Assembly: GCF_056746865.1 (NCBI RefSeq)
Contig: NZ_CM163382.1
DNA length: 64,000 bases
Reading direction: 5' to 3' (one strand)
Positions 3,178 to 57,304 of the stretch are shown here, in pieces. Below the pieces are notes generated by a model. The model was given only the letters and a program-made list of their open reading frames with translations, was not told the origin of the DNA and did not search any database. How positions within the stretch are numbered: position 1 is the stretch's first letter; each line of letters opens with the position of its first letter. Made by a program: the position numbers and the translations under genes.

Positions 3178-5003
3178 TGAAATTGCAAAAGCAATTACTG
3201 GAAGCTGTGGAGCACAAACAGCTACGCCCGCTGGATGTGCAATTTGCCCTGACCGTGGCGGGAGATGAACATCCTGCCGTCACCCTCGCGGCAGCCCTGT
3301 TAAGCCACGACGCCGGGGAAGGGCATGTCTGTTTACCGCTCTCACGACTGGAAAATAACGAGGAGTCACATCCGCTGTTAGCAACCTGTGTCAGTGAAAT
3401 CGGTGAGTTACAAAATTGGGAAGAATGCTTGCTGGCTTCACAAGCGGTCAGCCGGGGAGATGAACCAACGCCGATGATCCTCTGTGGTGATCGTCTTTAT
3501 TTGAATCGCATGTGGTGTAACGAGCGCACAGTGGCACGCTTTTTCAACGAAGTGAATCATGCCATTGAGGTTGATGAAGCTCTACTGGCGCAAACCCTGG
3601 ACAAACTTTTTCCAGTAAGCGATGAAATTAACTGGCAAAAAGTTGCGGCGGCAGTGGCGCTGACGCGGCGGATCTCGGTGATTTCCGGCGGCCCTGGCAC
3701 CGGTAAAACGACCACCGTAGCGAAGTTGCTGGCAGCGTTAATTCAAATGGCAGACGGCGAACGCTGCCGTATCCGTCTGGCTGCACCAACGGGTAAAGCT
3801 GCCGCGCGCTTAACCGAATCTCTCGGCAAGGCTTTGCGCCAGTTACCGCTGACCGATGAACAAAAGAAACGCATTCCGGAAGATGCCAGCACTTTGCACC
3901 GATTGCTGGGTGCGCAGCCGGGTAGCCAGCGTTTACGTCATCATGCCGGTAACCCGCTGCATCTTGATGTGCTGGTGGTAGATGAAGCGTCAATGATCGA
4001 TCTGCCTATGATGTCGAGACTGATCGACGCCTTGCCCGATCATGCGCGAGTGATCTTTCTCGGCGATCGTGATCAACTGGCTTCGGTTGAGGCTGGGGCA
4101 GTGCTGGGCGATATCTGCGCTTATGCCAATGCCGGCTTTACCGCCGAGCGTGCCGGGCAGTTGAGCCGCCTGACGGGAACTCACGTTCCGGCAGGAACTG
4201 GCACAGAAGCGGCATCTTTGCGCGACAGTCTCTGCCTGCTGCAAAAAAGCTATCGTTTCGGCAGCGATTCTGGCATTGGTCAGTTAGCTGCGGCGATCAA
4301 CCGTGGTGATAAAACGGCAGTGAAAACCGTTTTTCAGCAGGATTTTTCTGATATCGAAAAACGGCTTTTACAGAGCGGCGAAGATTATATTGCGATGCTT
4401 GAGGAAGCTCTTGCGGGTTACGGACGTTATCTGGATCTGCTGCAAGCGCGTGCCGAGCCGGATTTAATCATTCAGGCGTTCAATGAGTACCAGCTTTTGT
4501 GCGCCCTGCGGGAAGGGCCGTTTGGCGTGGCTGGACTGAATGAGCGAATTGAGCAGTTTATGCAACAGAAGCGCAAAATTCATCGTAATCCGCACTCTCG
4601 TTGGTACGAAGGCCGACCGGTGATGATTGCCCGTAATGACAGCGCGCTTGGGTTGTTTAATGGCGATATCGGTATCGCTCTGGATCGTGGGCAGGGGACG
4701 CGCGTCTGGTTTGCGATGCCGGACGGCAATATTAAGTCTGTGCAACCGAGTCGCTTGCCAGAGCACGAAACTACGTGGGCGATGACGGTACATAAATCGC
4801 AGGGATCGGAGTTCGACCATGCGGCGTTGATTTTACCGAGCCAACGCACGCCGGTAGTAACACGAGAGCTGGTTTACACCGCGGTGACCCGCGCGCGTCG
4901 CCGTCTGTCGCTGTATGCCGATGAGCGCATTTTAAGTGCGGCAATTGCCACGCGCACCGAGCGGCGCAGCGGTCTGGCGGCGTTGTTTAGTTCACGGGGA
5001 TAA
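3177..5003 (+). CDS. recD: RecBCD subunit RecD (5'-3' helicase)
   Basis: 608-aa ORF with Walker A motif GGPGTGKTT; start overlaps recB stop. Confidence 0.95.
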
Positions 5004-7955: not shown

Positions 7956-8032
<77 letters not shown>

Positions 8033-8064
8033 TCACCGTACTGCTTTATTTCATCAAATTTGAT

Positions 8065-8141
<77 letters not shown>

Positions 8142-8174
8142 TCACCGTACTGCTTTACTTCATCAAATTTTAAT

Positions 8175-8251
<77 letters not shown>

Positions 8252-44310: not shown

Positions 44311-44319
44311 TCTTACATA

Positions 44320-44347
44320 GCTGGATATGGCGTCAGCCGTATCCAGC
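44320..44347 (+). terminator. Hairpin downstream of relA
   Basis: gctggata ... tatccagc, 8-bp stem with 12-nt loop, followed by gatatctttt. Confidence 0.4.
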
Positions 44348-44405
44348 GATATCTTTTACTCGAAGGTATTACACCTGACAGACCCGCAATTTTCAGGACA
44401 TTCTA

Positions 44406-48506: not shown

Positions 48507-49424
48507 TTACCAGCGACCGGACGCGCCGCCACCGCCAGAAGAACCGCCCCCGCCGCTAAAGCCACCGCCTGAGCCTCCGCCACTTGAGCCGCCACCGGAA
48601 GAGGATGAAGAAGAACCTTTTCTTGAAGCTCTTTCTTTACCGAGCTTCTTGTATTTAGCGCGTAGCTTTTTATTAACGATAAGCCAAAAAATAAGCAGTG
48701 GTACGATGGCAAAAGGCGTGAGCATACCGCAGGCAACGATTAAATTGGTCCATGGTCCTGGCTCGGCAACATAGAGGAATACCATCCCGTAAATGGCGCC
48801 AGTGAGAGTGATCCAGGGTAAATTCGACGGATCGGTAAAAACAATAAAATATGAAAGTACCGCCAGCAATATAATTACAGCAAGCGATAATGGAATAAAG
48901 GGATTGATACTGTAATAATCCCCCCTGTCTTCCGATAATTCACCATTCAACAGAAGCGCGCCGATATTTTCGCTTGCCAGTGTTAATCCACCCATCAGGT
49001 CATCACTTTTGAAGGCAGGGATCAAAATATCTCTGATAATCTTCGCCGCTTGCAGGTCGGTAACCACCCCTTCCAGCCCGTAGCCAACCTCAATACGAAC
49101 AGCATGCTCCTCCCAGGCAACCAGAAGTAAAATACCATCGTTTCTCTGCTTATCTCCCAGTTTCCAGCTATCAAAAACGCGTGCTGCATATTGTTCAATG
49201 GAATCGTCTCCGGTGGACGGCACTACTAATACAGCGACCTGCGCCCGTGTTTTATGTGTAATATCCTGCAGCTGCTGCGTTAGCGATTGCTGTTCAGACG
49301 TGCTTAACGTACCAGTAATATCAGTCACTTGTTGGCGCAGCTCCGGCACAGCAATTTGCTGGGCAAGCCCGGGAAGGCTCCACAAAGCAAGTAGAATAAA
49401 GATTAAGCGCATTACGATCACCAA
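48507..49424 (-). CDS. TPM-domain (TLP18.3/Psb32/MOLO-1 family) membrane protein, paralog 1; ends in a Gly/Ser tail ...GGGGSSGGGGASGRW. Track start at 49424 is a TTG; the first ATG at 49412 (MRLIFILLALWSLPGLA) is the likelier start
   Basis: 305-aa track ORF: signal peptide, TPM domain, hydrophobic segments, low-complexity tail; adjacent to eno, the position of ygcG in K-12 as I recall it. Confidence 0.85.
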   Translation of the reverse strand: MVIVMRLIFILLALWSLPGLAQQIAVPELRQQVTDITGTLSTSEQQSLTQQLQDITHKTRAQVAVLVVPSTGDDSIEQYAARVFDSWKLGDKQRNDGILLLVAWEEHAVRIEVGYGLEGVVTDLQAAKIIRDILIPAFKSDDLMGGLTLASENIGALLLNGELSEDRGDYYSINPFIPLSLAVIILLAVLSYFIVFTDPSNLPWITLTGAIYGMVFLYVAEPGPWTNLIVACGMLTPFAIVPLLIFWLIVNKKLRAKYKKLGKERASRKGSSSSSSGGGSSGGGSGGGFSGGGGSSGGGGASGRW

Positions 49425-50566
49425 CGGCCGGATGAACCGCCGCCTCCTGAAGAACCGCCACCACCGCGGAAAGAATTTCTCGACGAAGAGCGAGAATGAG
49501 CATTACGATTCCCCGTTTTCCTGTTGCTTTTTTCTCCTGATCCCAGCTTAAGATTGCCAGTAAATTTGGCCACAATGATCAGCAGAACGATGCCAGCAAT
49601 GGTTATTGGGCCGATAAAATGATCAATTAACCCAATAATTGTTGAGATGAATGCAATATCTTTATTACTGGCGAACACCAGGCACCATCCCACAATAATT
49701 ATCAGCATCACGACAAACAATGAATTTCGTCCTGATTCACGAACCTGCGGAGTCTTCTTTTGTTTTTTCACTTTAGCGTTTTTATTTTTTGGGGTCAGCA
49801 TCATAGGAAATACGCGGCACATATTAAAAACTACCGCGAGACGCTGCTTGCAGGTTGTTGCTAACAATAAACTAAAACAAACGACCGATACCCGCCGAAT
49901 GATGACATCGTCCTGAAAGGAGAAAAACCAGACCATAGGGGTAATCATCGATATCATCCATATGCCACGCCCTGGGCGGCTGGCAAATCGCCAGAGGACA
50001 ACGATGGCAACGATCATCAGCAGTGTCCAGGCAAGACAAGGCAGCGAACGTTGCGGATTAGCAAACAGATGATTGGCTAAAGCATCCAAAGGGCTAAGGT
50101 TCGCTTTGATATGGGTAAACTGTGCGATGCTTTCAATTCCGCCCGTTAATCCAGCAAAGAGATTGTTTTTTTCGAATTCTGGCTGCATATGGTAACGAAC
50201 AATTTGCGAAGCTTGTTCCGGCGGCAACATCTGTTCCAGTCCATGTCCAATCTTCATTGACGCCAGCCCTTCCGGCCATACGACGAGAATTAAGATACCT
50301 TCGCCATATCGCTTCTCTCCAACGGGTTTCCAGTGATATACCCCGTATCTCTGCGAGGCTGCAAGTTTAATGTTTTTGCCCCCTGTGGTCGGCGTGACCA
50401 ACACGGCCACCTGGAAGTGGTTTTGCTGCTCGAGAGTCTGTAATTGTTGAGTTAAAGCAGTTTGTTCTTCTGTCGTTAATGTCCCGGTTAAGTCAGTTAC
50501 TGAAGGCAATTGTTCAGCGAATACCTGAAAACCGCATAGCATCAGAAGTAAGAGAAAAATACGCAT
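49418..50566 (-). CDS. TPM-domain-like membrane protein, paralog 2 (divergent, longer membrane region); ends ...GGGGSSGGGGSSGRW
   Basis: 382-aa ORF: signal peptide MRIFLLLLMLCGFQVFA, several hydrophobic segments, Lys-rich linker, Gly/Ser tail; stop lies 5 nt before the paralog 1 ATG. Confidence 0.8.
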   Translation of the reverse strand: MRIFLLLLMLCGFQVFAEQLPSVTDLTGTLTTEEQTALTQQLQTLEQQNHFQVAVLVTPTTGGKNIKLAASQRYGVYHWKPVGEKRYGEGILILVVWPEGLASMKIGHGLEQMLPPEQASQIVRYHMQPEFEKNNLFAGLTGGIESIAQFTHIKANLSPLDALANHLFANPQRSLPCLAWTLLMIVAIVVLWRFASRPGRGIWMISMITPMVWFFSFQDDVIIRRVSVVCFSLLLATTCKQRLAVVFNMCRVFPMMLTPKNKNAKVKKQKKTPQVRESGRNSLFVVMLIIIVGWCLVFASNKDIAFISTIIGLIDHFIGPITIAGIVLLIIVAKFTGNLKLGSGEKSNRKTGNRNAHSRSSSRNSFRGGGGSSGGGGSSGRW

Positions 50567-50580
50567 ATCAATTCCTTTTG

Positions 50581-51474
50581 TTACCAGCGCCCGGAAGCGC
50601 CACCGCCACCAGATGAACCGCCACCACCGCTGAAATTGTCATTGTTGAATGAAGAGGATGACGATGATGAATAGTGGGAGGAAGAATTGCTTCTTGTATG
50701 GCGTGATGGCTGGTTGGCATCACGCATCGAATCCCGAACCTTTTTGCCGAAGGGGGTAAAAGCGATGGCGACAGCCAGGAACGGTGTGGCGAAGCAGAGT
50801 AATGTTGCGAGTACTCCCCAGCTTCCGCTGAAGCCTGCTATAGGTAAAACAAAGGCCAGTACAATAGCTGCGAAGCAAATTACTCCCAGCGTTTTGATAT
50901 ATCCTCTGGCAGAAATAAACGTCAGTACTATCGCCCAGACTAACAAAGCCCACCAACCGCTAAAAGGCAAAGGGTGATCGGTCGGTGTTATCGTTGCTAA
51001 ATTATTCCCCGTCAGACGACTTTCAATATCGCTGATTCCCTTTTGCAAACCACCAGCCAGGTCCCCTTTTTTAAATGCCGGAATAATACTGTTGCGAATA
51101 ATTTTCCCGGACTGTGCATCCGTAATAATACCTTCCAGTCCGTAACCGATTTCAATACGCACGGTATGATCCTGCCAGGCGACTAACAGTAGAACGCCAT
51201 CATCGTGGTCTTTATCACCCGGTTTCCAGCTATCGAATACCCGCGTTGCGTACTGCTCGATGGTTTCATCGCCAGTTGTTTCAACCACTAACACGACCAA
51301 CTGTGCGTAGTTTTTTTGCGTCAGGGCTTTAATCTGGTTGGTCAGGGTGTTTACTTCGCTGTTTGTTAATGTGCCGGTTAAGTCATTCACATACTTGGGT
51401 GATTCAGGTACTGGAATTTGTGTGGCAAACACAGATGAACAGAAGAAAGCCATAAGGAAGATAAAATTTCGCAT
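50581..51474 (-). CDS. TPM-domain membrane protein, paralog 3; ends ...GGGGSSGGGGASGRW
   Basis: Track ORF 50581..51504; start taken at the ATG at 51474 (MRNFIFLMAFFCSSVFA), 13 nt after the LemA stop with a GGGGAAG Shine-Dalgarno-like sequence. Confidence 0.8.
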   Translation of the reverse strand: MRNFIFLMAFFCSSVFATQIPVPESPKYVNDLTGTLTNSEVNTLTNQIKALTQKNYAQLVVLVVETTGDETIEQYATRVFDSWKPGDKDHDDGVLLLVAWQDHTVRIEIGYGLEGIITDAQSGKIIRNSIIPAFKKGDLAGGLQKGISDIESRLTGNNLATITPTDHPLPFSGWWALLVWAIVLTFISARGYIKTLGVICFAAIVLAFVLPIAGFSGSWGVLATLLCFATPFLAVAIAFTPFGKKVRDSMRDANQPSRHTRSNSSSHYSSSSSSSFNNDNFSGGGGSSGGGGASGRW

Positions 51475-51487
51475 AGAACTTCCCCGC

Positions 51488-52090
51488 TTAATGAGCATTA
51501 GCATTCTGGCTAAAATCTATTGTTGGGGCTTTACTTACTGCGGCGACATCATCCGGCAAATAATTTTTCTTTGGTGTGTAATCCATGACCTTTGCGGTTA
51601 ACACAGCGGGGAATTTGCGGATAGTGACATTATATTGTTCAATGGCTTTAATATATCTTCCTCGCGCAACGGCAATCCGATTTTCACTTCCTTCAAGCTG
51701 TACCATTAAATTTTGATAGAGTTCCTGAGATTTTAACTCAGGGTAACGCTCACTAATTATCGTTAACTGACCGAGAGTGCGAGTCACCTGCGCTTGAGCC
51801 TGTTGCCAGGCTTGTAATTTTTGTTCATCGCCCGGAGTTTGCTGAAGATCGCTACTGGCGCGATTAGCCTGGCTACGAGCCAATGTTACGGCTTCCAGTA
51901 CATCTCGTTCATGGCTGGAATAACCTTTAATGCTGGCGACAAGATTAGGAATAAGATCGGCGCGACGTTGATATTGATTCAATACCTCAGACCAGGAGGC
52001 GTTAACCTGCTCATCATAGGTTTGAATATCGTTATATCCACAGCCTGATAAATTGAAAATAAATATAATTACGATGAATATTCTGAGCAT
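51488..52090 (-). CDS. LemA-family lipoprotein
   Basis: 200-aa ORF; N-terminus MLRIFIVIIFIFNLSGC has a lipobox (LSGC); LemA-like coiled region; first gene of the apparent LemA-TPM operon. Confidence 0.85.
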   Translation of the reverse strand: MLRIFIVIIFIFNLSGCGYNDIQTYDEQVNASWSEVLNQYQRRADLIPNLVASIKGYSSHERDVLEAVTLARSQANRASSDLQQTPGDEQKLQAWQQAQAQVTRTLGQLTIISERYPELKSQELYQNLMVQLEGSENRIAVARGRYIKAIEQYNVTIRKFPAVLTAKVMDYTPKKNYLPDDVAAVSKAPTIDFSQNANAH

Positions 52091-52262: not shown

Positions 52263-52934
52263 ATGCAGTACCCGATTAACGAGATGTTCCAGACCCTGCA
52301 AGGTGAGGGTTACTTTACCGGCGTCCCCGCCATTTTTATTCGTTTACAGGGATGCCCGGTTGGCTGTGCCTGGTGCGACACCAAACACACCTGGGAAAAG
52401 CTTGAGGATCGGGAAGTCTCCCTTTTCAGCATTCTGGCGAAGACCAAAGAGAGTGATAAGTGGGGGGCGGCGAGCAGTGAAGACTTGCTGGCTGTCATTG
52501 GTCGCCAGGGATACACCGCGCGGCATGTGGTGATTACGGGTGGTGAGCCTTGCATTCATGATTTGCTGCCACTGACTGACCTGCTCGAAAAGAACGGTTT
52601 TAGCTGCCAGATCGAAACCAGTGGTACTCATGAGGTACGCTGCACACCGAATACCTGGGTTACCGTATCGCCAAAGCTGAACATGCGCGGCGGCTATGAA
52701 GTGTTGTCACAGGCACTGGAGCGAGCCAACGAAATCAAGCATCCAGTGGGACGCGTACGTGATATTGAAGCACTGGATGAACTTTTGGCGACGCTGACCG
52801 ATGATAAACCGCGAGTCATTGCACTGCAGCCGATTAGCCAAAAGGATGATGCCACACGATTGTGCATTGAAACCTGCATTGCTCGTAATTGGCGTTTGTC
52901 GATGCAAACACATAAATATCTAAATATTGCCTGA
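52263..52934 (+). CDS. queE: 7-carboxy-7-deazaguanine synthase (radical SAM)
   Basis: 223-aa ORF with Cys motif CPVGCAWCDT. Confidence 0.9.
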   Translation: MQYPINEMFQTLQGEGYFTGVPAIFIRLQGCPVGCAWCDTKHTWEKLEDREVSLFSILAKTKESDKWGAASSEDLLAVIGRQGYTARHVVITGGEPCIHDLLPLTDLLEKNGFSCQIETSGTHEVRCTPNTWVTVSPKLNMRGGYEVLSQALERANEIKHPVGRVRDIEALDELLATLTDDKPRVIALQPISQKDDATRLCIETCIARNWRLSMQTHKYLNIA

Positions 52935-53159
52935 TTAAACATTTATAAGCGTTATAAATGGGTGGAACCTGTAAAGATTTCTACTCATTTATATTGTTTG
53001 TCGCCTCTGAAAACTCCTCCATTTTACCCATCCAGGGCTAATCATTAGCATTCTCTACAAATTCTGCGGCATTAATTTTTCGCTGGAGTGAAAATTATTG
53101 CGGTAAAGTTTGGTAGATTTTAGTCGGTATAGGATTACTTTAAATATTTAGCTTTTCAA

Positions 53160-53273
53160 TCAATGGATTAAGTGCTCTTTAACATAATGGATGTGTTGTT
53201 TGTGTGATACTATAAAGTTGGTAGATTGTGACTGACTTAAAAAATCAATAATTAATAATAGGTTATGTTTAGT
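53160..53273 (+). promoter_or_regulatory. AT-rich CRISPR leader
   Basis: AT-rich tract immediately upstream of the first repeat, on the side opposite the degenerate terminal repeat. Confidence 0.5.
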
Positions 53274-53851
53274 GAGTTCCCCGCGCCAGCGGGGATAAAC
53301 CGTCTGGGCCGGATTCGATCCCGCGCGTACCGGAGAGTTCCCCGCGCCAGCGGGGATAAACCGTACAATCCCGCATCGAAACTGAATACCCCGATGAGTT
53401 CCCCGCGCCAGCGGGGATAAACCGTTGCCCAGGCTTTTGCGAAAATTTGTGATTTGGAGTTCCCCGCGCCAGCGGGGATAAACCGACACGGGGCAGATTG
53501 AGCAGGACTGCGACCTCGAGTTCCCCGCGCCAGCGGGGATAAACCGGCAGCAGATTTACAAACAGATCGGAGATTACTGAGTTCCCCGCGCCAGCGGGGA
53601 TAAACCGCGCGGCCTGCGCTCGCGTAAAATCAGTTGCAGGAGTTCCCCGCGCCAGCGGGGATAAACCGTCCGCGCAAGCCTATATAAACCAGATTGATCA
53701 GAGTTCCCCGCGCCAGCGGGGATAAACCGCGAAATCGCACGCGCTTCCCGCATGGGGGAAAGAGTTCCCCGCGCCAGCGGGGATAAACCGTGTAAAAGTC
53801 TTGGTTTTGGCGCATCATTTGTGAGTTCCCCGCGCCAGCGGGGATAAACCA
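53274..53851 (+). CRISPR. Type I-E CRISPR array: 10 repeats of 29 bp (GAGTTCCCCGCGCCAGCGGGGATAAACCG) and 9 spacers of 32 bp; the last repeat is degenerate at its 3' end
   Basis: Exact 61-bp periodicity; repeats start at 53274, 53335, 53396, 53457, 53518, 53579, 53640, 53701, 53762, 53823; no cas genes in the window. Confidence 0.95.
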
Positions 53852-54379
53852 CCATATAACCCGTTATCTCTTTCTCAAGTTTTTATATTAGCAGTACTCG
53901 TATTAAGCAATATATCCACGTAACACCTCATGTTCAAAATAGCTCTCCATATATGAGAAGTTCACAATTATCGATACAAAAAATCAAATTTAATTAAAGT
54001 GTTAGTTGTATGATACTTAAATCATTAAGAAATTATCATATATTATTTTTTTAATATTGAATTGATGTTTGTTAATTTTTTCTTTAGGATAGTAGTTTGT
54101 TTTTTAAGCTTATTATTCATTGATTAAGTAATAAATCTGGAAATTTGTCTTTGTTTTGAGGCTAATGAGTGGTTTTACATAATCGCCTCTATACGCTGTT
54201 GATGAATAGTTCTTATGAATAAAGATATCCAGTTCATACTTTAAGTGAAAATTGATAAAGTGCGATTCGTATTGTCTTTTATTCTAAATAGACTGGCCCC
54301 CTGAATCTCCAGACAACCAATATCACTTAAATAAGTGATAGTCTTAATACTAGTTTTTAGACTAGTCATTGGAGAGCAG

Positions 54380-54745
54380 ATGATTGATGTCTTAGGACCG
54401 GAGAAACGCAGACGGCGTACTACACAGGAAAAGATCGCTATTGTTCAGCAGAGTTTTGAACCGGGAATGACGGTCTCCCTTGTTGCCCGGCAACACGGTG
54501 TGGCAGCCAGCCAGTTATTTCTCTGGCGCAAGCAATACCAGGAGGGAAGTCTTACTGCTGTGGCCGCAGGAGAGCAGGTCGTTCCTGCCTCTGAACTTGC
54601 TGCTGCCATGAAGCAGATTAAAGAACTCCAGCGCCTGCTCGGCAAAAAAACGATGGAAAATGAACTCCTTAAAGAAGCCGTTGAATACGGGCGTGCAAAA
54701 AAGTGGATAGCGCACGCGCCCTTATTGCCCGGGGATGGGGAGTAA
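54380..54745 (+). CDS. insC: IS2 transposase OrfA (InsC), helix-turn-helix
   Basis: Track ORF 54335..54745; start taken at [13 protein letters not shown] (121 aa). Confidence 0.9.
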
Positions 54746-55608
54746 GCTTAGTCAGCCGTTGTCTCCGGGTGTCGCGTGCGCAGTTGCACGTCATTCTCAG
54801 ACGAACCGATGACTGGAAAGATGGTCGCCGCAGCCGTCACTCAGATGATACGGATGTGCTTCTCCGTATACACCATGTTATCGGAGAGCTGCCCACGTAT
54901 GGTTATCGTCGGGTATGGGCGCTGCTTCGCAGACAGGCCGAACTTGATGGTATGCCTGCGATCAATGCCAAACGTGTTTACCGGATCATGCGCCAGAATG
55001 CGCTGTTGCTTGAGCGAAAAACCGCTGTACCGCCATCGAAACGGGCACATACTGGCAAAGTGGCCGTGAAAGAAAGCAATCAACGATGGTGCTCTGACGG
55101 GTTCGAGTTCCGCTGTGATAACGGAGAAAAACTGCGAGTCACGTTCGCGCTGGACTGCTGTGACCGTGAGGCACTGCACTGGGCAGTCACTACGGGCGGC
55201 TTCGACAGTGAAACAGTACAGGACGTAATGCTGGGAGCGGTGGAACGCCGCTTCGGCAACGAGCTTCCGGCGTCTCCAGTAGAGTGGCTGACGGATAATG
55301 GTTCATGCTACCGGGCTAATGAAACACGGCAGTTTGCCCGGATGTTGGGGCTTGAACCGAAGAACACGGCGGTGCGGAGTCCGGAGAGTAACGGCATAGC
55401 AGAGAGCTTCGTGAAAACGATAAAGCGTGACTACATCAGTATCATGCCTAAACCAGACGGGTTAACGGCAGCAAAGAACCTTGCAGAGGCGTTCGAGCAT
55501 TATAACGAATGGCATCCGCATAGTGCACTGGGTTATCGCTCGCCACGGGAATATCTACGGCAGCGGGCCAGTAATGGGTTAAGTGATAACAGGTGTCTGG
55601 AAATATAG
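54703..55608 (+). CDS. insD: IS2 transposase OrfB (InsD), DDE catalytic domain; overlaps OrfA in the -1 frame (programmed frameshift arrangement)
   Basis: 301-aa ORF recognised as IS2 InsD. Confidence 0.9.
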
Positions 55609-55641
55609 GGGCAAATCCACTAAAGACATCGAGTGTAGTTA

Positions 55642-55780
55642 ATATTCCTTGTAAAAACAGGGATAAACCGAACTAGTTAAAGTTTTTATTATGTTCCCTG
55701 CATCAGCGGGGATAAACCGGACTTGTTATCATTTTTTAAGTTGTCGAACTTATGTTCCCCGCGTCAGCGGGGATAACCAT
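55642..55780 (+). CRISPR. Degenerate CRISPR array remnant (about 3 diverged type I-E repeats, 2 spacers)
   Basis: atattccttgtaaaaacagggataaaccg, atgttccctgcatcagcggggataaaccg and atgttccccgcgtcagcggggataaccat, in the same orientation as the main array. Confidence 0.6.
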
Positions 55781-55825: not shown

Positions 55826-57304
55826 TTACGCATTCGACCAGCTCTGGATCGAATCCGCATTCCCCAATTCCCCATGCATCACTTCATACGATTTTTTCAG
55901 GATTACATCAGTATGTTTGGTTAACTCCTTGAAAATGCCTTTATTCATCGCGTCGTAGCGTTTGGCATTGTTCTCAACAGGCATAAAGATATCTTTCACG
56001 CGAACCATTTTGTCGACAGCCGTTGCGTAATCCGGGTATAGCCCCAGACCTACCGCCGTATTGATCGCTGCCCCCAGACTTGCACAACCATTAATGGCGT
56101 TACGGCGTGCCGGAAGGTTGAACACGTCGGCAAAAATCTGCATAAACAGATCGCTGTTCGAACCGCCGCCAGTAATGATCACATGTTTGGCAAAGTGATT
56201 CATTTCATTACACATATTGTCGTAATTGTTCTTCAGCGTCAGCGCCACGCTTTCCAGTATCGAACGATATATCCATGCGTAATCCATGCTGGAATCAAAG
56301 CCGATCATAATCCCGCGTTTGTACGGTTCCCACGGATTGGTCAGCCAGTCCAGCACCGTCATCAGACCATTACAGCCAGGCGGCACACAAGACGCTTTCT
56401 TGTTGAGTAAATCTTCCGGTGAAAGATCCTGTGCTTTGGCATCCTGAATTAACGACTCGCCTAACATGTCGCGCAGCCAGCTCACTGTCCACATGCCTTT
56501 GCGGATACCGTAACCTTCATACAGCAATGTTTGCGGAATAGAAGACATAATTGGCCAGTACGCCACCGGATCTTTCGGCAGTGCTTTGCCGTTCATCATC
56601 AATGCGATGTAAGTGCCAAGAGAAATTACCGCAGTTTCATTATCCAGTAATCCGGCCCCCAGAGCTTCTACCGGTTTATCACTGGTGGTACAAACAACCG
56701 GCAGTCCTGCCGGGAAATGTGTCGCCAGTGCGGCTTGTGGTGTGATATGTCCGAGGACGGTGCCAGGCATTTGCACATCAAAAAGCATATGACGGGGGAT
56801 ATTAAACTTCTCCATGACTGCGGCATCTTCACTCCATGCCCAGGTCTTATAATCCACCGGCCACTGACCAAAATAGTTGGCGATATTGTCTTTAAACTCG
56901 CCGGTTAAGCGATGCGTCAGATAACCTGAAAAAGAGGTGACATATGCCACGTCAGGATTCGTATGTTCGTAAGGGCGTGTAACGCGTGCATCCTGCCAGC
57001 TAATCAACGGCGCAGCTGGCGTGCCATCGGCTTTCAATAACGCACGGCAGCAACGGATGGATCCCAGACCAATACCGACAATATCTTCTTTATTCCCGGC
57101 AAACTGACTCATCAAATCGTGACCGGCAAAACATAATGATGCCCATAAATCGTCGTCAGGATGTTCTGCGGTATCGGCATCTGGCGTGTGCATCGGCTGC
57201 AATAAGCCTTTGCCTTCGCAAACCACATTACCTTCCAGATCATACATCACCACTTTTGTGCTCTGACTTCCGCCATCAATCCCTATGATGTATTTTTTCG
57301 ACAT
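55826..57304 (-). CDS. ygcE: FGGY-family carbohydrate kinase, substrate unknown
   Basis: 492-aa ORF with FGGY kinase N- and C-terminal domains. Confidence 0.9.
   Translation of the reverse strand: MSKKYIIGIDGGSQSTKVVMYDLEGNVVCEGKGLLQPMHTPDADTAEHPDDDLWASLCFAGHDLMSQFAGNKEDIVGIGLGSIRCCRALLKADGTPAAPLISWQDARVTRPYEHTNPDVAYVTSFSGYLTHRLTGEFKDNIANYFGQWPVDYKTWAWSEDAAVMEKFNIPRHMLFDVQMPGTVLGHITPQAALATHFPAGLPVVCTTSDKPVEALGAGLLDNETAVISLGTYIALMMNGKALPKDPVAYWPIMSSIPQTLLYEGYGIRKGMWTVSWLRDMLGESLIQDAKAQDLSPEDLLNKKASCVPPGCNGLMTVLDWLTNPWEPYKRGIMIGFDSSMDYAWIYRSILESVALTLKNNYDNMCNEMNHFAKHVIITGGGSNSDLFMQIFADVFNLPARRNAINGCASLGAAINTAVGLGLYPDYATAVDKMVRVKDIFMPVENNAKRYDAMNKGIFKELTKHTDVILKKSYEVMHGELGNADSIQSWSNA

Follow-up and report, generated by a model that had tools for sequence, protein, structure and literature searches.

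A complete copy of IS2 occupies the CRISPR-II locus in the window, the 64,000-nucleotide stretch of DNA analysed here. It very probably results from a strain-specific event of very recent date, in which a functional IS2 isoform inserted itself by the copy-out-paste-in route into the non-coding, AT-rich DNA between the main array CRISPR2.3 and the fossil array CRISPR2.2. The insertion is taken to be real, clean and very recent because the empty site is common, the occupied site is absent from the genomes compared, and strain 118UI, which has the empty site, is nearly identical to the window. The element itself is known, as is the kind of event.

Structure of the IS2 copy and its junctions

The element belongs to the IS2 group of the IS3 family, lies on the + strand and is complete with 1331 bp (Table 1). 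Its termini, TAGACTGGCCCCCTGAATCTCCAGACAACC... at the left end and ...GGTGTCTGGAAATATAGGGGCAAATCCA at the right end, form imperfect inverted repeats; a computational search detected an inverted repeat at 54298-54330 and 55579-55611, inside the IS2 ends. The lengths assigned to IRL and IRR, 42 bp and 41 bp, follow the published anatomy of IS2, according to which the IRL stretch contains the binding site of OrfA as well as the start of PIRL, a weak promoter, and in which the A6G frameshift site is also described (PMC3299598). The reading frames of orfA and orfB overlap (54703-54745), and on an identical plasmid copy PGAP assigns the label IS3 family transposase with programmed frameshift. The NCBIfam models of IS2 TnpB (NF006918, 704 bits at a cut-off of 597), IS2 TnpA (NF006928, 239 bits at a cut-off of 229) and the IS3 transposase (NF033516, 284 bits at a cut-off of 160) were all matched, and the Pfam domains rve, rve_3, HTH_Tnp_1 and HTH_21 were found in the proteins.

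Comparison with IS2A of K-12 (insC1/insD1, NC_000913.3 381260-382590) revealed the same length and the same boundaries. The two elements have in common IRL, the first 87 bp, the OrfA protein, A6G, the DD(35)E motif and a 5-bp duplication, whereas 56 nucleotide substitutions separate them, with 10 amino acids altered in OrfB and one position in IRR. OrfA is 100% identical to InsC1, all 20 of its nucleotide differences being synonymous and at third codon positions. OrfB shares 96.7% of its amino acids with InsD1; none of the 10 substitutions affects a DDE residue, and 35 residues lie between the second D and E. The single difference in IRR, A to G at IS position 1305, is also found in the copy on plasmid p573-1. 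Isoforms in the sense of ISfinder have a nucleotide identity of approximately 95% or more. With 95.8% identity to K-12 IS2A, near this threshold, the copy is therefore regarded as an IS2 isoform, namely that of the 1,780 records with at least 99% identity, among them IncHI2A plasmids, and not the K-12 type. Near-identical copies (99.9-100%) occupy many different sites and replicons, which, together with the silent nature of all substitutions in orfA, lends indirect support to transposition competence. Judged by its sequence, the copy in the window is apparently active and is predicted to be a functional isoform.

Table 1. Features of the CRISPR-II locus and of the inserted IS2 (window coordinates)
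Feature	Position	Strand	Remarks
leader2.3, AT-rich leader of main array	52935..53274	+	queE side; untouched by IS2
CRISPR2.3, main type I-E array	53275..53852	+	10 repeats, 9 spacers, 61-bp period; last repeat ends ...ACCA
AT-rich spacer between arrays	53853..54283		53893-54132 hypervariable in E. coli; low diversity from ~54133
Target-site duplication CTAAA, left copy	54284..54288		single copy in 118UI empty site
IS2, IS3 family	54289..55619	+	indel-free position-by-position alignment to K-12 IS2A, 95.8% identity
IRL, 42 bp	54289..54330	+	left inverted repeat; IS positions 1-87 same as K-12 IS2A
PIRL promoter start	54327-54339 (IS bp 39-51)		anatomy per PMC3299598
orfA, 121 aa	54380..54745	+	HTH_Tnp_1 (Pfam PF01527); repressor and N-terminal transposase part
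A6G (AAAAAAG), programmed -1 frameshift site	54697..54703	+	joins orfA to orfB
orfB, 301 aa	54703..55608	+	HTH_21 and rve integrase core; DDE = D132, D198, E234
IRR, 41 bp	55579..55619	+	right inverted repeat, ends ...CA-3'
Target-site duplication CTAAA, right copy	55620..55624		perfect match to left copy
CRISPR2.2	55642..55780	+	three degenerate repeats: 55642-55670, 55691-55719, 55752-55780
ygcE, FGGY-family kinase	55826..57304	-	convergent with IS2; 3' end 207 bp past IS2 end
Occupied junction sequence			…TTATTCTAAA / TAGACTGGCC…
Junction 28-mers of occupied site			GTCTTTTATTCTAAATAGACTGGCCCCC and GGGGCAAATCCACTAAAGACATCGAGTG

Both insertion junctions coincide exactly with the IS2 termini. 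In 118UI the sequences that flank IS2 adjoin each other, and their BLAST alignments have exactly five bases in common, CTAAA, which rules out a chance match as the origin of the duplication. The eight other IS2 copies inspected (8/8) each possess a perfect 5-bp duplication of their own. A shared target motif was considered when the BLAST alignments of some copies ran into the flanks, but the eight sites revealed no consensus beyond the 5-bp duplication. As a curiosity, the IS2 site in melB resembles the right flank of the insertion in the window (GACATCG.GTGTAGT).

Empty site and age of the insertion

In at least 25 complete E. coli genomes, the empty site obtained by joining the flanks had a match of 100% identity over 639 bp, and 4,121 of the 5,426 complete genomes contained the empty site at a coverage of at least 80%. 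A further 421 genomes matched below 80% coverage, typically from repeat 3 of CRISPR2.2 onward only; a fused form, CRISPR2.2-3, in which the spacer between the arrays is missing, occurs in many strains (see also PMC3903273). The occupied site was found in none of the 5,426 genomes, a collection that does not contain the source genome of the window. In 118UI the empty site is collinear with the window and 100% identical over 6.6 kb; across approximately 62.5 kb, the two differ by a single SNP, in addition to IS2 and a difference in tRNA copy number. A copy with 100% identity to this IS2 resides on p573-1, a conjugative IncHI2A plasmid, and is the sole identical copy within the complete-genome collection; the match is compatible with transfer between plasmid and chromosome in either direction. 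The original prediction of a complete 1331-bp IS2 with both inverted repeats, overlapping OrfA and OrfB and a CTAAA duplication was thus correct in each of its elements. The coordinates place the element, as predicted, in the AT-rich spacer between the main and the degenerate array, and the comparison with empty sites that had been proposed as a check upheld a relatively recent and clean transposition.

By analogy with the established pathway of IS2 and the IS3 family, OrfAB would be synthesized by -1 frameshifting at A6G and would generate an IS2 minicircle, with another copy in the cell as donor. The abutted IS2 ends would then attack the target at CTAAA with a 5-bp stagger, and repair would duplicate the five CTAAA bases. 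It is hardly conceivable that IS2 is not really there, be it that the assembly misplaced a repeat or that an old insertion was precisely excised elsewhere. Multicopy repeats commonly cause misassembly, and IS2 has a median of 4 matching places per genome and up to 41. However, a misjoin would not perfectly duplicate five bases that occur only once in the empty site, nor would it yield junctions located exactly at the IS2 termini, and excision would have had to be precise in thousands of genomes from every lineage.

The insertion site and the DNA upstream of CRISPR2.2

The locus corresponds to the known CRISPR-II region, in which queE, leader2.3, CRISPR2.3, the AT-rich spacer (0.43 kb), CRISPR2.2 and ygcE follow one another. 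The insertion site is bordered by two units that converge on it, queE to CRISPR2.3 and ygcE. Leaders of CRISPR-II have been described (PMC3903273), and leader2.3 shares the block AGTTGGTAGATTGT with leader2.1 of 118UI. On the + strand the CRISPR2.3 repeats read GAGTTCCCCGCGCCAGCGGGGATAAACCG; 118UI contains the same 578-bp array, where it is annotated as CRISPR. The GC content of 53853-54288 ranges from 0.23 to 0.33. CRISPR2.2 is known as three repeats with two invariable spacers (PMC4489801). In the window these spacers comprise 20 nt and 32 nt, and the array is 100% identical to that of K-12 and nearly invariant in 10 genomes. All three repeats (3/3) have kept the repeat hairpin, with a 7-bp stem and a 4-nt loop, repeat 1 by means of two compensatory changes.

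IS2 splits a block of approximately 290 bp with unusually low diversity among E. coli, composed of the 156 bp upstream of the site, 17 bp, repeat 1, spacer 1, repeat 2 and spacer 2. In 10 diverse genomes the 156 bp (54133-54288) contain 3 variable sites, compared with 54 in the 431 bp of the spacer (Fisher p = 3e-5) and 60 in 605 bp of ygcE (p = 5e-4); together with the 17 bp up to repeat 1 the number rises to 7. Something in this block may therefore be under constraint. Scans with Rfam gave no matches in the window between 50000 and 58000 (E <= 1) and only chance-level matches in the emptied locus of 118UI (E <= 10), which indicates that no known RNA family extends across the insertion site. 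A search among phages and plasmids for a protospacer of the invariable 32-nt CRISPR2.2 spacer yielded, besides E. coli chromosomes listed as plasmids in PLSDB, only chance matches. CRISPR2.2 signatures were also sought in the GTDB species representatives, with 0 matches in one scan and 3 chance matches lacking homology to the locus in the other; these results are uninformative with regard to conservation outside E. coli. An open reading frame of 31 codons with a GTG start that spans the empty site was rejected as a gene, as nothing supports it.

Since all repeats have the same sense (+), the AT-rich DNA is located upstream of CRISPR2.2. Before the insertion, 17 bp separated its end from the 5' side of repeat 1; IS2 now stands 17 bp upstream of repeat 1 in sense orientation. 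To this extent the geometry agrees with the original prediction that IS2 probably disrupts the leader or promoter of the second array, but the evidence collected speaks against a working leader at this place. That the AT-rich DNA is the leader or promoter of CRISPR2.2, and that IS2 severs it and thereby silences transcription of the array or the uptake of spacers, is considered unlikely. The idea is kept alive by the low-diversity block that IS2 splits, in which the 156 bp before the site are joined to CRISPR2.2, and it gains from the hairpin retained in the three degenerate repeats. The upstream block also fits the operational definition of a leader as AT-rich, conserved and situated on one side of an array (PMC2886076). 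Yet leaders have been described only beside CRISPR2.1 and CRISPR2.3 (PMC3903273, PMC3737337), which leaves CRISPR2.2 without a leader in the literature. Its two invariable spacers (PMC4489801) imply that CRISPR2.2 is not a site of acquisition, and the invariance between the window and K-12 and the near-invariance in the 10 genomes contradict polarized acquisition at this array. Nor did alignment reveal a specific resemblance of the upstream DNA to leader2.3 or leader2.1. Its alignment with leader2.3 gave z = 0.7 and that with leader2.1 a score of 9, within the range of arbitrary windows from the same spacer (maximum 10), a comparison of little power because the positive control, leader2.1 against leader2.3, itself scored only 13. 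Promoter-like sites were not clearly more frequent than in shuffled sequences, neither in the first count (8 against an expected 5.5 +/- 2.5) nor in the emptied locus (6 against 3.0 +/- 1.7). The sole + strand candidate near CRISPR2.2, at 54156-54183, has CATAAC instead of CATAAT in 7 of the 10 genomes, K-12 included, so that the critical T of the -10 element is replaced by C. Finally, the many strains with the fused CRISPR2.2-3 have no such spacer at all, and cas1e is a pseudogene in the near-identical 118UI.

A broader reading takes the block of approximately 290 bp as a functional unit, for example an orphan mini-array that has a leader-like control region of its own and gives rise to a conserved RNA that Cas6e can process, and IS2 as a natural knock-out that parts the control region from the repeats. 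The probability of this reading is rated as low. If it were true, a non-immune function of the "fossil" CRISPR2.2 would be conserved in E. coli, and the window strain and its IS2-free near-twin 118UI would form a ready isogenic pair. Should the conservation of the block reflect function, the window strain would be a natural mutant for it.

IS2 might also activate rather than interrupt, in that read-through from its right end, or a hybrid promoter at IRR, would drive CRISPR2.2 and continue antisense into the 3' end of ygcE. IS2 is a classical gene-activating insertion and creates hybrid promoters, as at gal and ampC, which serve as precedents. The orientation of the element would permit such activity, as orfA and orfB are co-directional with CRISPR2.2 and no terminator-like site was found between them and the array. 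The junction promoter Pjunc has its -35 half in IRR (PMC3299598), and this outward -35 faces CRISPR2.2. In this respect the insertion is like those at gal and ampC, but its flank lacks a usable -10. At the 17-bp spacing required by Pjunc the flank offers TAAAGA as the -10, a match at 3 of 6 positions in which the essential T at the end is absent. No + strand site spanning the right junction was detected in the promoter scan. The hybrid promoter at the right end was rejected on this sequence. PIRL, for its part, is weak and repressed by OrfA (PMC3299598). Activation of CRISPR2.2 by IS2 is accordingly judged very improbable, and a recent insertion into non-coding DNA remains the preferred explanation.

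Consequences and relation to known insertions

No gene is interrupted by IS2. Leader2.3, the region with the leader and promoter of the active array, is intact and lies 1 kb away on the far side of CRISPR2.3, and the active array is not impaired. As IS2 breaks neither a gene nor a known CRISPR control region, the insertion is an ordinary strain-specific event, and we infer that it is selectively neutral or nearly so. The low diversity at the insertion point and the constraint that it may reflect mean that the insertion may not be neutral. The only local effect would be that CRISPR2.2 has been shifted by 1,336 bp relative to the conserved 156 bp that normally stand before it. The transposase genes of IS2 would now also lie in the path of any read-through from CRISPR2.3. 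IS2 provides a good strain-specific marker that separates the isolate from the near-identical 118UI.

Insertions that inactivate CRISPR-Cas have been reported, with IS2 among the elements that enter the type I-E loci of E. coli (Sheng et al. 2023, PMC10359306). Those insertions are located in cas genes and abolish interference, whereas the IS2 in the window has struck no cas gene, active array or leader. A closer parallel is found in the sporadic insertion elements in CRISPR-II (ygcE-ygcF) of E. coli and Shigella, which are reported to have "no apparent impact" (Almendros et al. 2014, PMC3903273). Locus and kind of event are the same; here, however, the element is IS2 and the exact site is not occupied in any of the 5,426 genomes. 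The insertion is one more instance of an IS entering the AT-rich and non-essential DNA of CRISPR-II and is of small practical importance. The same spacer contains IS1 in strains RIVM_C037791 and LR-24.

Structure and identity of the IS2 element

The IS2 element (Table) separates CRISPR2.3, the main array, from CRISPR2.2, the degenerate array of three repeats. It is intact, as claimed in the original prediction: both inverted repeats, the overlapping orfA and orfB and a perfect CTAAA duplication are present, and an alignment with the annotated IS2A of K-12 MG1655 revealed equal length, no indels and 56 substitutions (95.8% identity). The terminal inverted repeat was picked up by a repeat finder; no further IS2 copy was found within the window. 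The first 87 bp are identical to those of K-12 IS2A, a stretch that contains the left inverted repeat (IRL) and the OrfA operator and in which the weak PIRL promoter begins (PMC3299598). The amino acid sequence of OrfA is that of K-12, with all 20 nucleotide differences in orfA located at third codon positions. None of the 10 substitutions in OrfB affects D132, D198 or E234, and the D-to-E spacing of 35 residues is canonical. An OrfAB fusion reconstructed across the frameshift scores above the NCBI curated cut-offs of the models for IS2 TnpB (704 bits, cut-off 597 bits), IS2 TnpA (239 bits, cut-off 229 bits) and the IS3-family transposase (284 bits, cut-off 160 bits); it contains the Pfam domains HTH_Tnp_1, HTH_21, rve and rve_3.

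Table. Features of the window around the IS2 insertion; variable sites are from the ten-genome alignment
Feature	Position	Strand	Remarks
queE	52263-52934	+	
leader2.3 (leader of CRISPR2.3)	52935-53274		AT-rich
CRISPR2.3	53275-53852	+	10 repeats
AT-rich spacer between arrays	53853-54288		GC 0.23-0.33
Whole spacer, diversity	53853-54283		54 variable sites in 431 bp; Fisher p = 3e-5 vs 55625-55780
Distal spacer	53893-54132		hypervariable, mean pairwise difference 5-10%
CTAAA duplication, left copy	54284-54288		directly before IS2
IS2	54289-55619	+	1331 bp; starts TAGACTGGCCCCCTGAATCTCCAGACAACC, ends GGTGTCTGGAAATATAGGGGCAAATCCA
orfA	54380-54745	+	121 aa; ATG start at 54380; overlaps orfB
Slippery heptamer AAAAAAG	54697	+	
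orfB	54703-55608	+	301 aa; overlaps orfA
CTAAA duplication, right copy	55620-55624		directly after IS2
Insertion site to end of repeat 3	55625-55780		3 variable sites in 156 bp
Intervening DNA, IS2 to CRISPR2.2			17 bp
CRISPR2.2	55642-55780	+	three degenerate repeats
ygcE	55826-57304	-	
ygcE 3' part	55826-56430		60 variable sites in 605 bp; Fisher p = 5e-4 vs 55625-55780

At ≥99% identity the isoform occurs in 1,780 records at many different sites, which would indirectly indicate that it transposes. The only 100% identical copy among 5,426 complete genomes resides on the conjugative IncHI2A plasmid p573-1 (NZ_CP102854.1, 222386-223716), where it is flanked by its own duplication, TCTGA. Several plasmids of 230-290 kb have a 99.9% identical copy at one and the same relative position, which makes a plasmid a plausible carrier of the isoform. 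In strain CP131_Sichuan the right flank of an independent IS2 insertion in melB, CGACATCGGTGTAGTAATA, is similar to that of the window IS2, GACATCGAGTGTAGTTAATA; no such likeness was seen at six other inspected IS2 sites. The resemblance could be due to chance or to a weak target preference.

Empty site and age of the insertion

The predicted insertion is confirmed, and the claims that it is intact, clean and recent are supported. A 639-bp query from which IS2 and one CTAAA had been taken out, such that the flanks were joined at a single CTAAA, found an uninterrupted single match at 100% identity in at least 25 complete E. coli genomes and matched at ≥80% coverage in 4,121 of 5,426 genomes. 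A 1,975-bp query of the occupied configuration gave coverage beyond IS2 alone in none of the 5,426. The two IS2 flanks align with 118UI, a near-identical E. coli strain with an empty site, at 100% identity over 3,433 and 3,211 bp, and on 118UI the alignments overlap by exactly 5 bases, the single CTAAA. Over the whole window the differences from 118UI are one SNP in ~62.5 kb, the IS2 and 219 extra bases, which constitute two additional tandem tRNA-fMet genes. The insertion therefore postdates the divergence of these two almost identical isolates.

Three tandem tRNA-fMet (CAT) genes are present at 7956-8251, and one, with 219 bp fewer, in the 118UI assembly; either the copy number truly differs or the repeat has been collapsed in the 118UI assembly.

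Consequences for the CRISPR-II locus

On the + strand the CRISPR2.3 repeats read GAGTTCCCCGCGCCAGCGGGGATAAACCG, which is the type I-E repeat in the crRNA sense. The locus is the CRISPR-II locus, in which two arrays lie 0.5 kb apart and leaders adjoin CRISPR2.1 and CRISPR2.3 only (PMC3903273). Leader2.3 is on the opposite side of CRISPR2.3 from IS2 and is untouched, and no coding sequence is interrupted. According to the original prediction, IS2 probably disrupts the leader or promoter of the degenerate array. The layout agrees, with AT-rich DNA on the 5' side of CRISPR2.2 (sense orientation) and IS2 close to repeat 1, and conservation provides a hint, but functional evidence is weak and the disruption is not supported beyond these two points. 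In alignments of little power, DNA upstream of CRISPR2.2 gave no specific match to leader2.3 (z = 0.7), and against leader2.1, the leader of CRISPR2.1, it scored no higher than windows taken arbitrarily from that spacer; as a positive control, the block AGTTGGTAGATTGT is common to leader2.3 and the leader2.1 of 118UI. Sigma-70-like sites were not clearly above shuffles (8 vs 5.5 ± 2.5 expected), nor were they clearly commoner in the locus emptied of IS2 and one CTAAA (6 vs 3.0 ± 1.7). The sole + strand promoter candidate of the proximal region, TTGAGG-16-CATAAT (54156-54183), has CATAAC as its -10 in seven of ten genomes, including K-12. The CRISPR2.2 spacers are invariant in the K-12 comparison and in the ten-genome alignment, so no acquisition occurs there. 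The invariable 32-nt spacer matched no phage or plasmid, and many genomes have neither the AT-rich spacer nor the first two CRISPR2.2 repeats.

The conservation hint derives from an alignment of the emptied locus from ten diverse E. coli genomes, a small sample. A block from ~54133 to ~55760 across the insertion point (54133-54288 plus 55625-55760), comprising the proximal spacer and most of CRISPR2.2, contains 8 variable sites in ~290 bp, far below the variability of the distal spacer or ygcE, and IS2 lies within it. CRISPR2.2 and the preceding 17 bp are 100% identical to K-12, the adjacent spacer 93.3%. The predicted hairpin of the canonical repeat (7-bp stem, 4-nt loop) is kept by all three CRISPR2.2 repeats, in repeat 1 by two compensatory changes from C-G to U-A. 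Given the quiet block and the kept hairpins, IS2 may split something functional, although this is unlikely; it is likewise improbable that CRISPR2.2 works as a unit together with the conserved DNA upstream of it, in which case this strain would be a natural knock-out. The low diversity could also stem from the haplotype structure of a locus prone to recombination.

IS2 and both arrays point the same way. Transcription continuing past CRISPR2.3 would therefore traverse IS2 in sense, and no terminator-like site came up between CRISPR2.3 and IS2. The right end of IS2 holds the outward -35 half of a junction promoter (PMC3299598). The flank has TAAAGA at the 17-bp distance that this promoter needs, but the final T, which is essential, is missing there, and a promoter scan across the right junction found no site. 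Activation of CRISPR2.2 or transcription antisense to ygcE is possible only by read-through from the weak, OrfA-repressed PIRL.

Precedents and neighbouring differences

Sporadic IS elements have been reported in the CRISPR-II locus (PMC3903273); the insertion is already known in kind and the element is a textbook IS2. Unlike IS insertions into cas genes, which abolish immunity (PMC10359306), it touches no demonstrated working part of the system. The same spacer carries an IS1 in RIVM_C037791, ~85 bp left of the IS2 site (L007 ~1850-2612, a sequence of that strain). In LR-24 (NZ_AP027494.1, L006 ~3230-4000) the end of an IS1 abuts GACATCGAG at the same phosphodiester as IS2 (CTAAA/GACATC), accompanied by deletion of CRISPR2.3 and the spacer. 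The spacer is possibly a local hotspot for insertions.

The type I-E cas operon of 118UI is complete, but its annotation lists cas1e, interrupted by an internal stop, as a pseudogene (L008 10098-11021, the 118UI cas region, outside the window); adaptation may already be defective in the lineage of 118UI and the window. The gap between relA and mazG is 95 bp (~44311-44405, from the annotation of the identical 118UI sequence), where K-12 carries the mazE-mazF toxin-antitoxin pair; mazE-mazF is therefore absent in this lineage. Positions 49418-52090, reported as downstream of queE, hold a LemA-family gene and, after it, several TPM-domain genes; the part of the K-12 region compared shows only yqcG and the start of ygcG.
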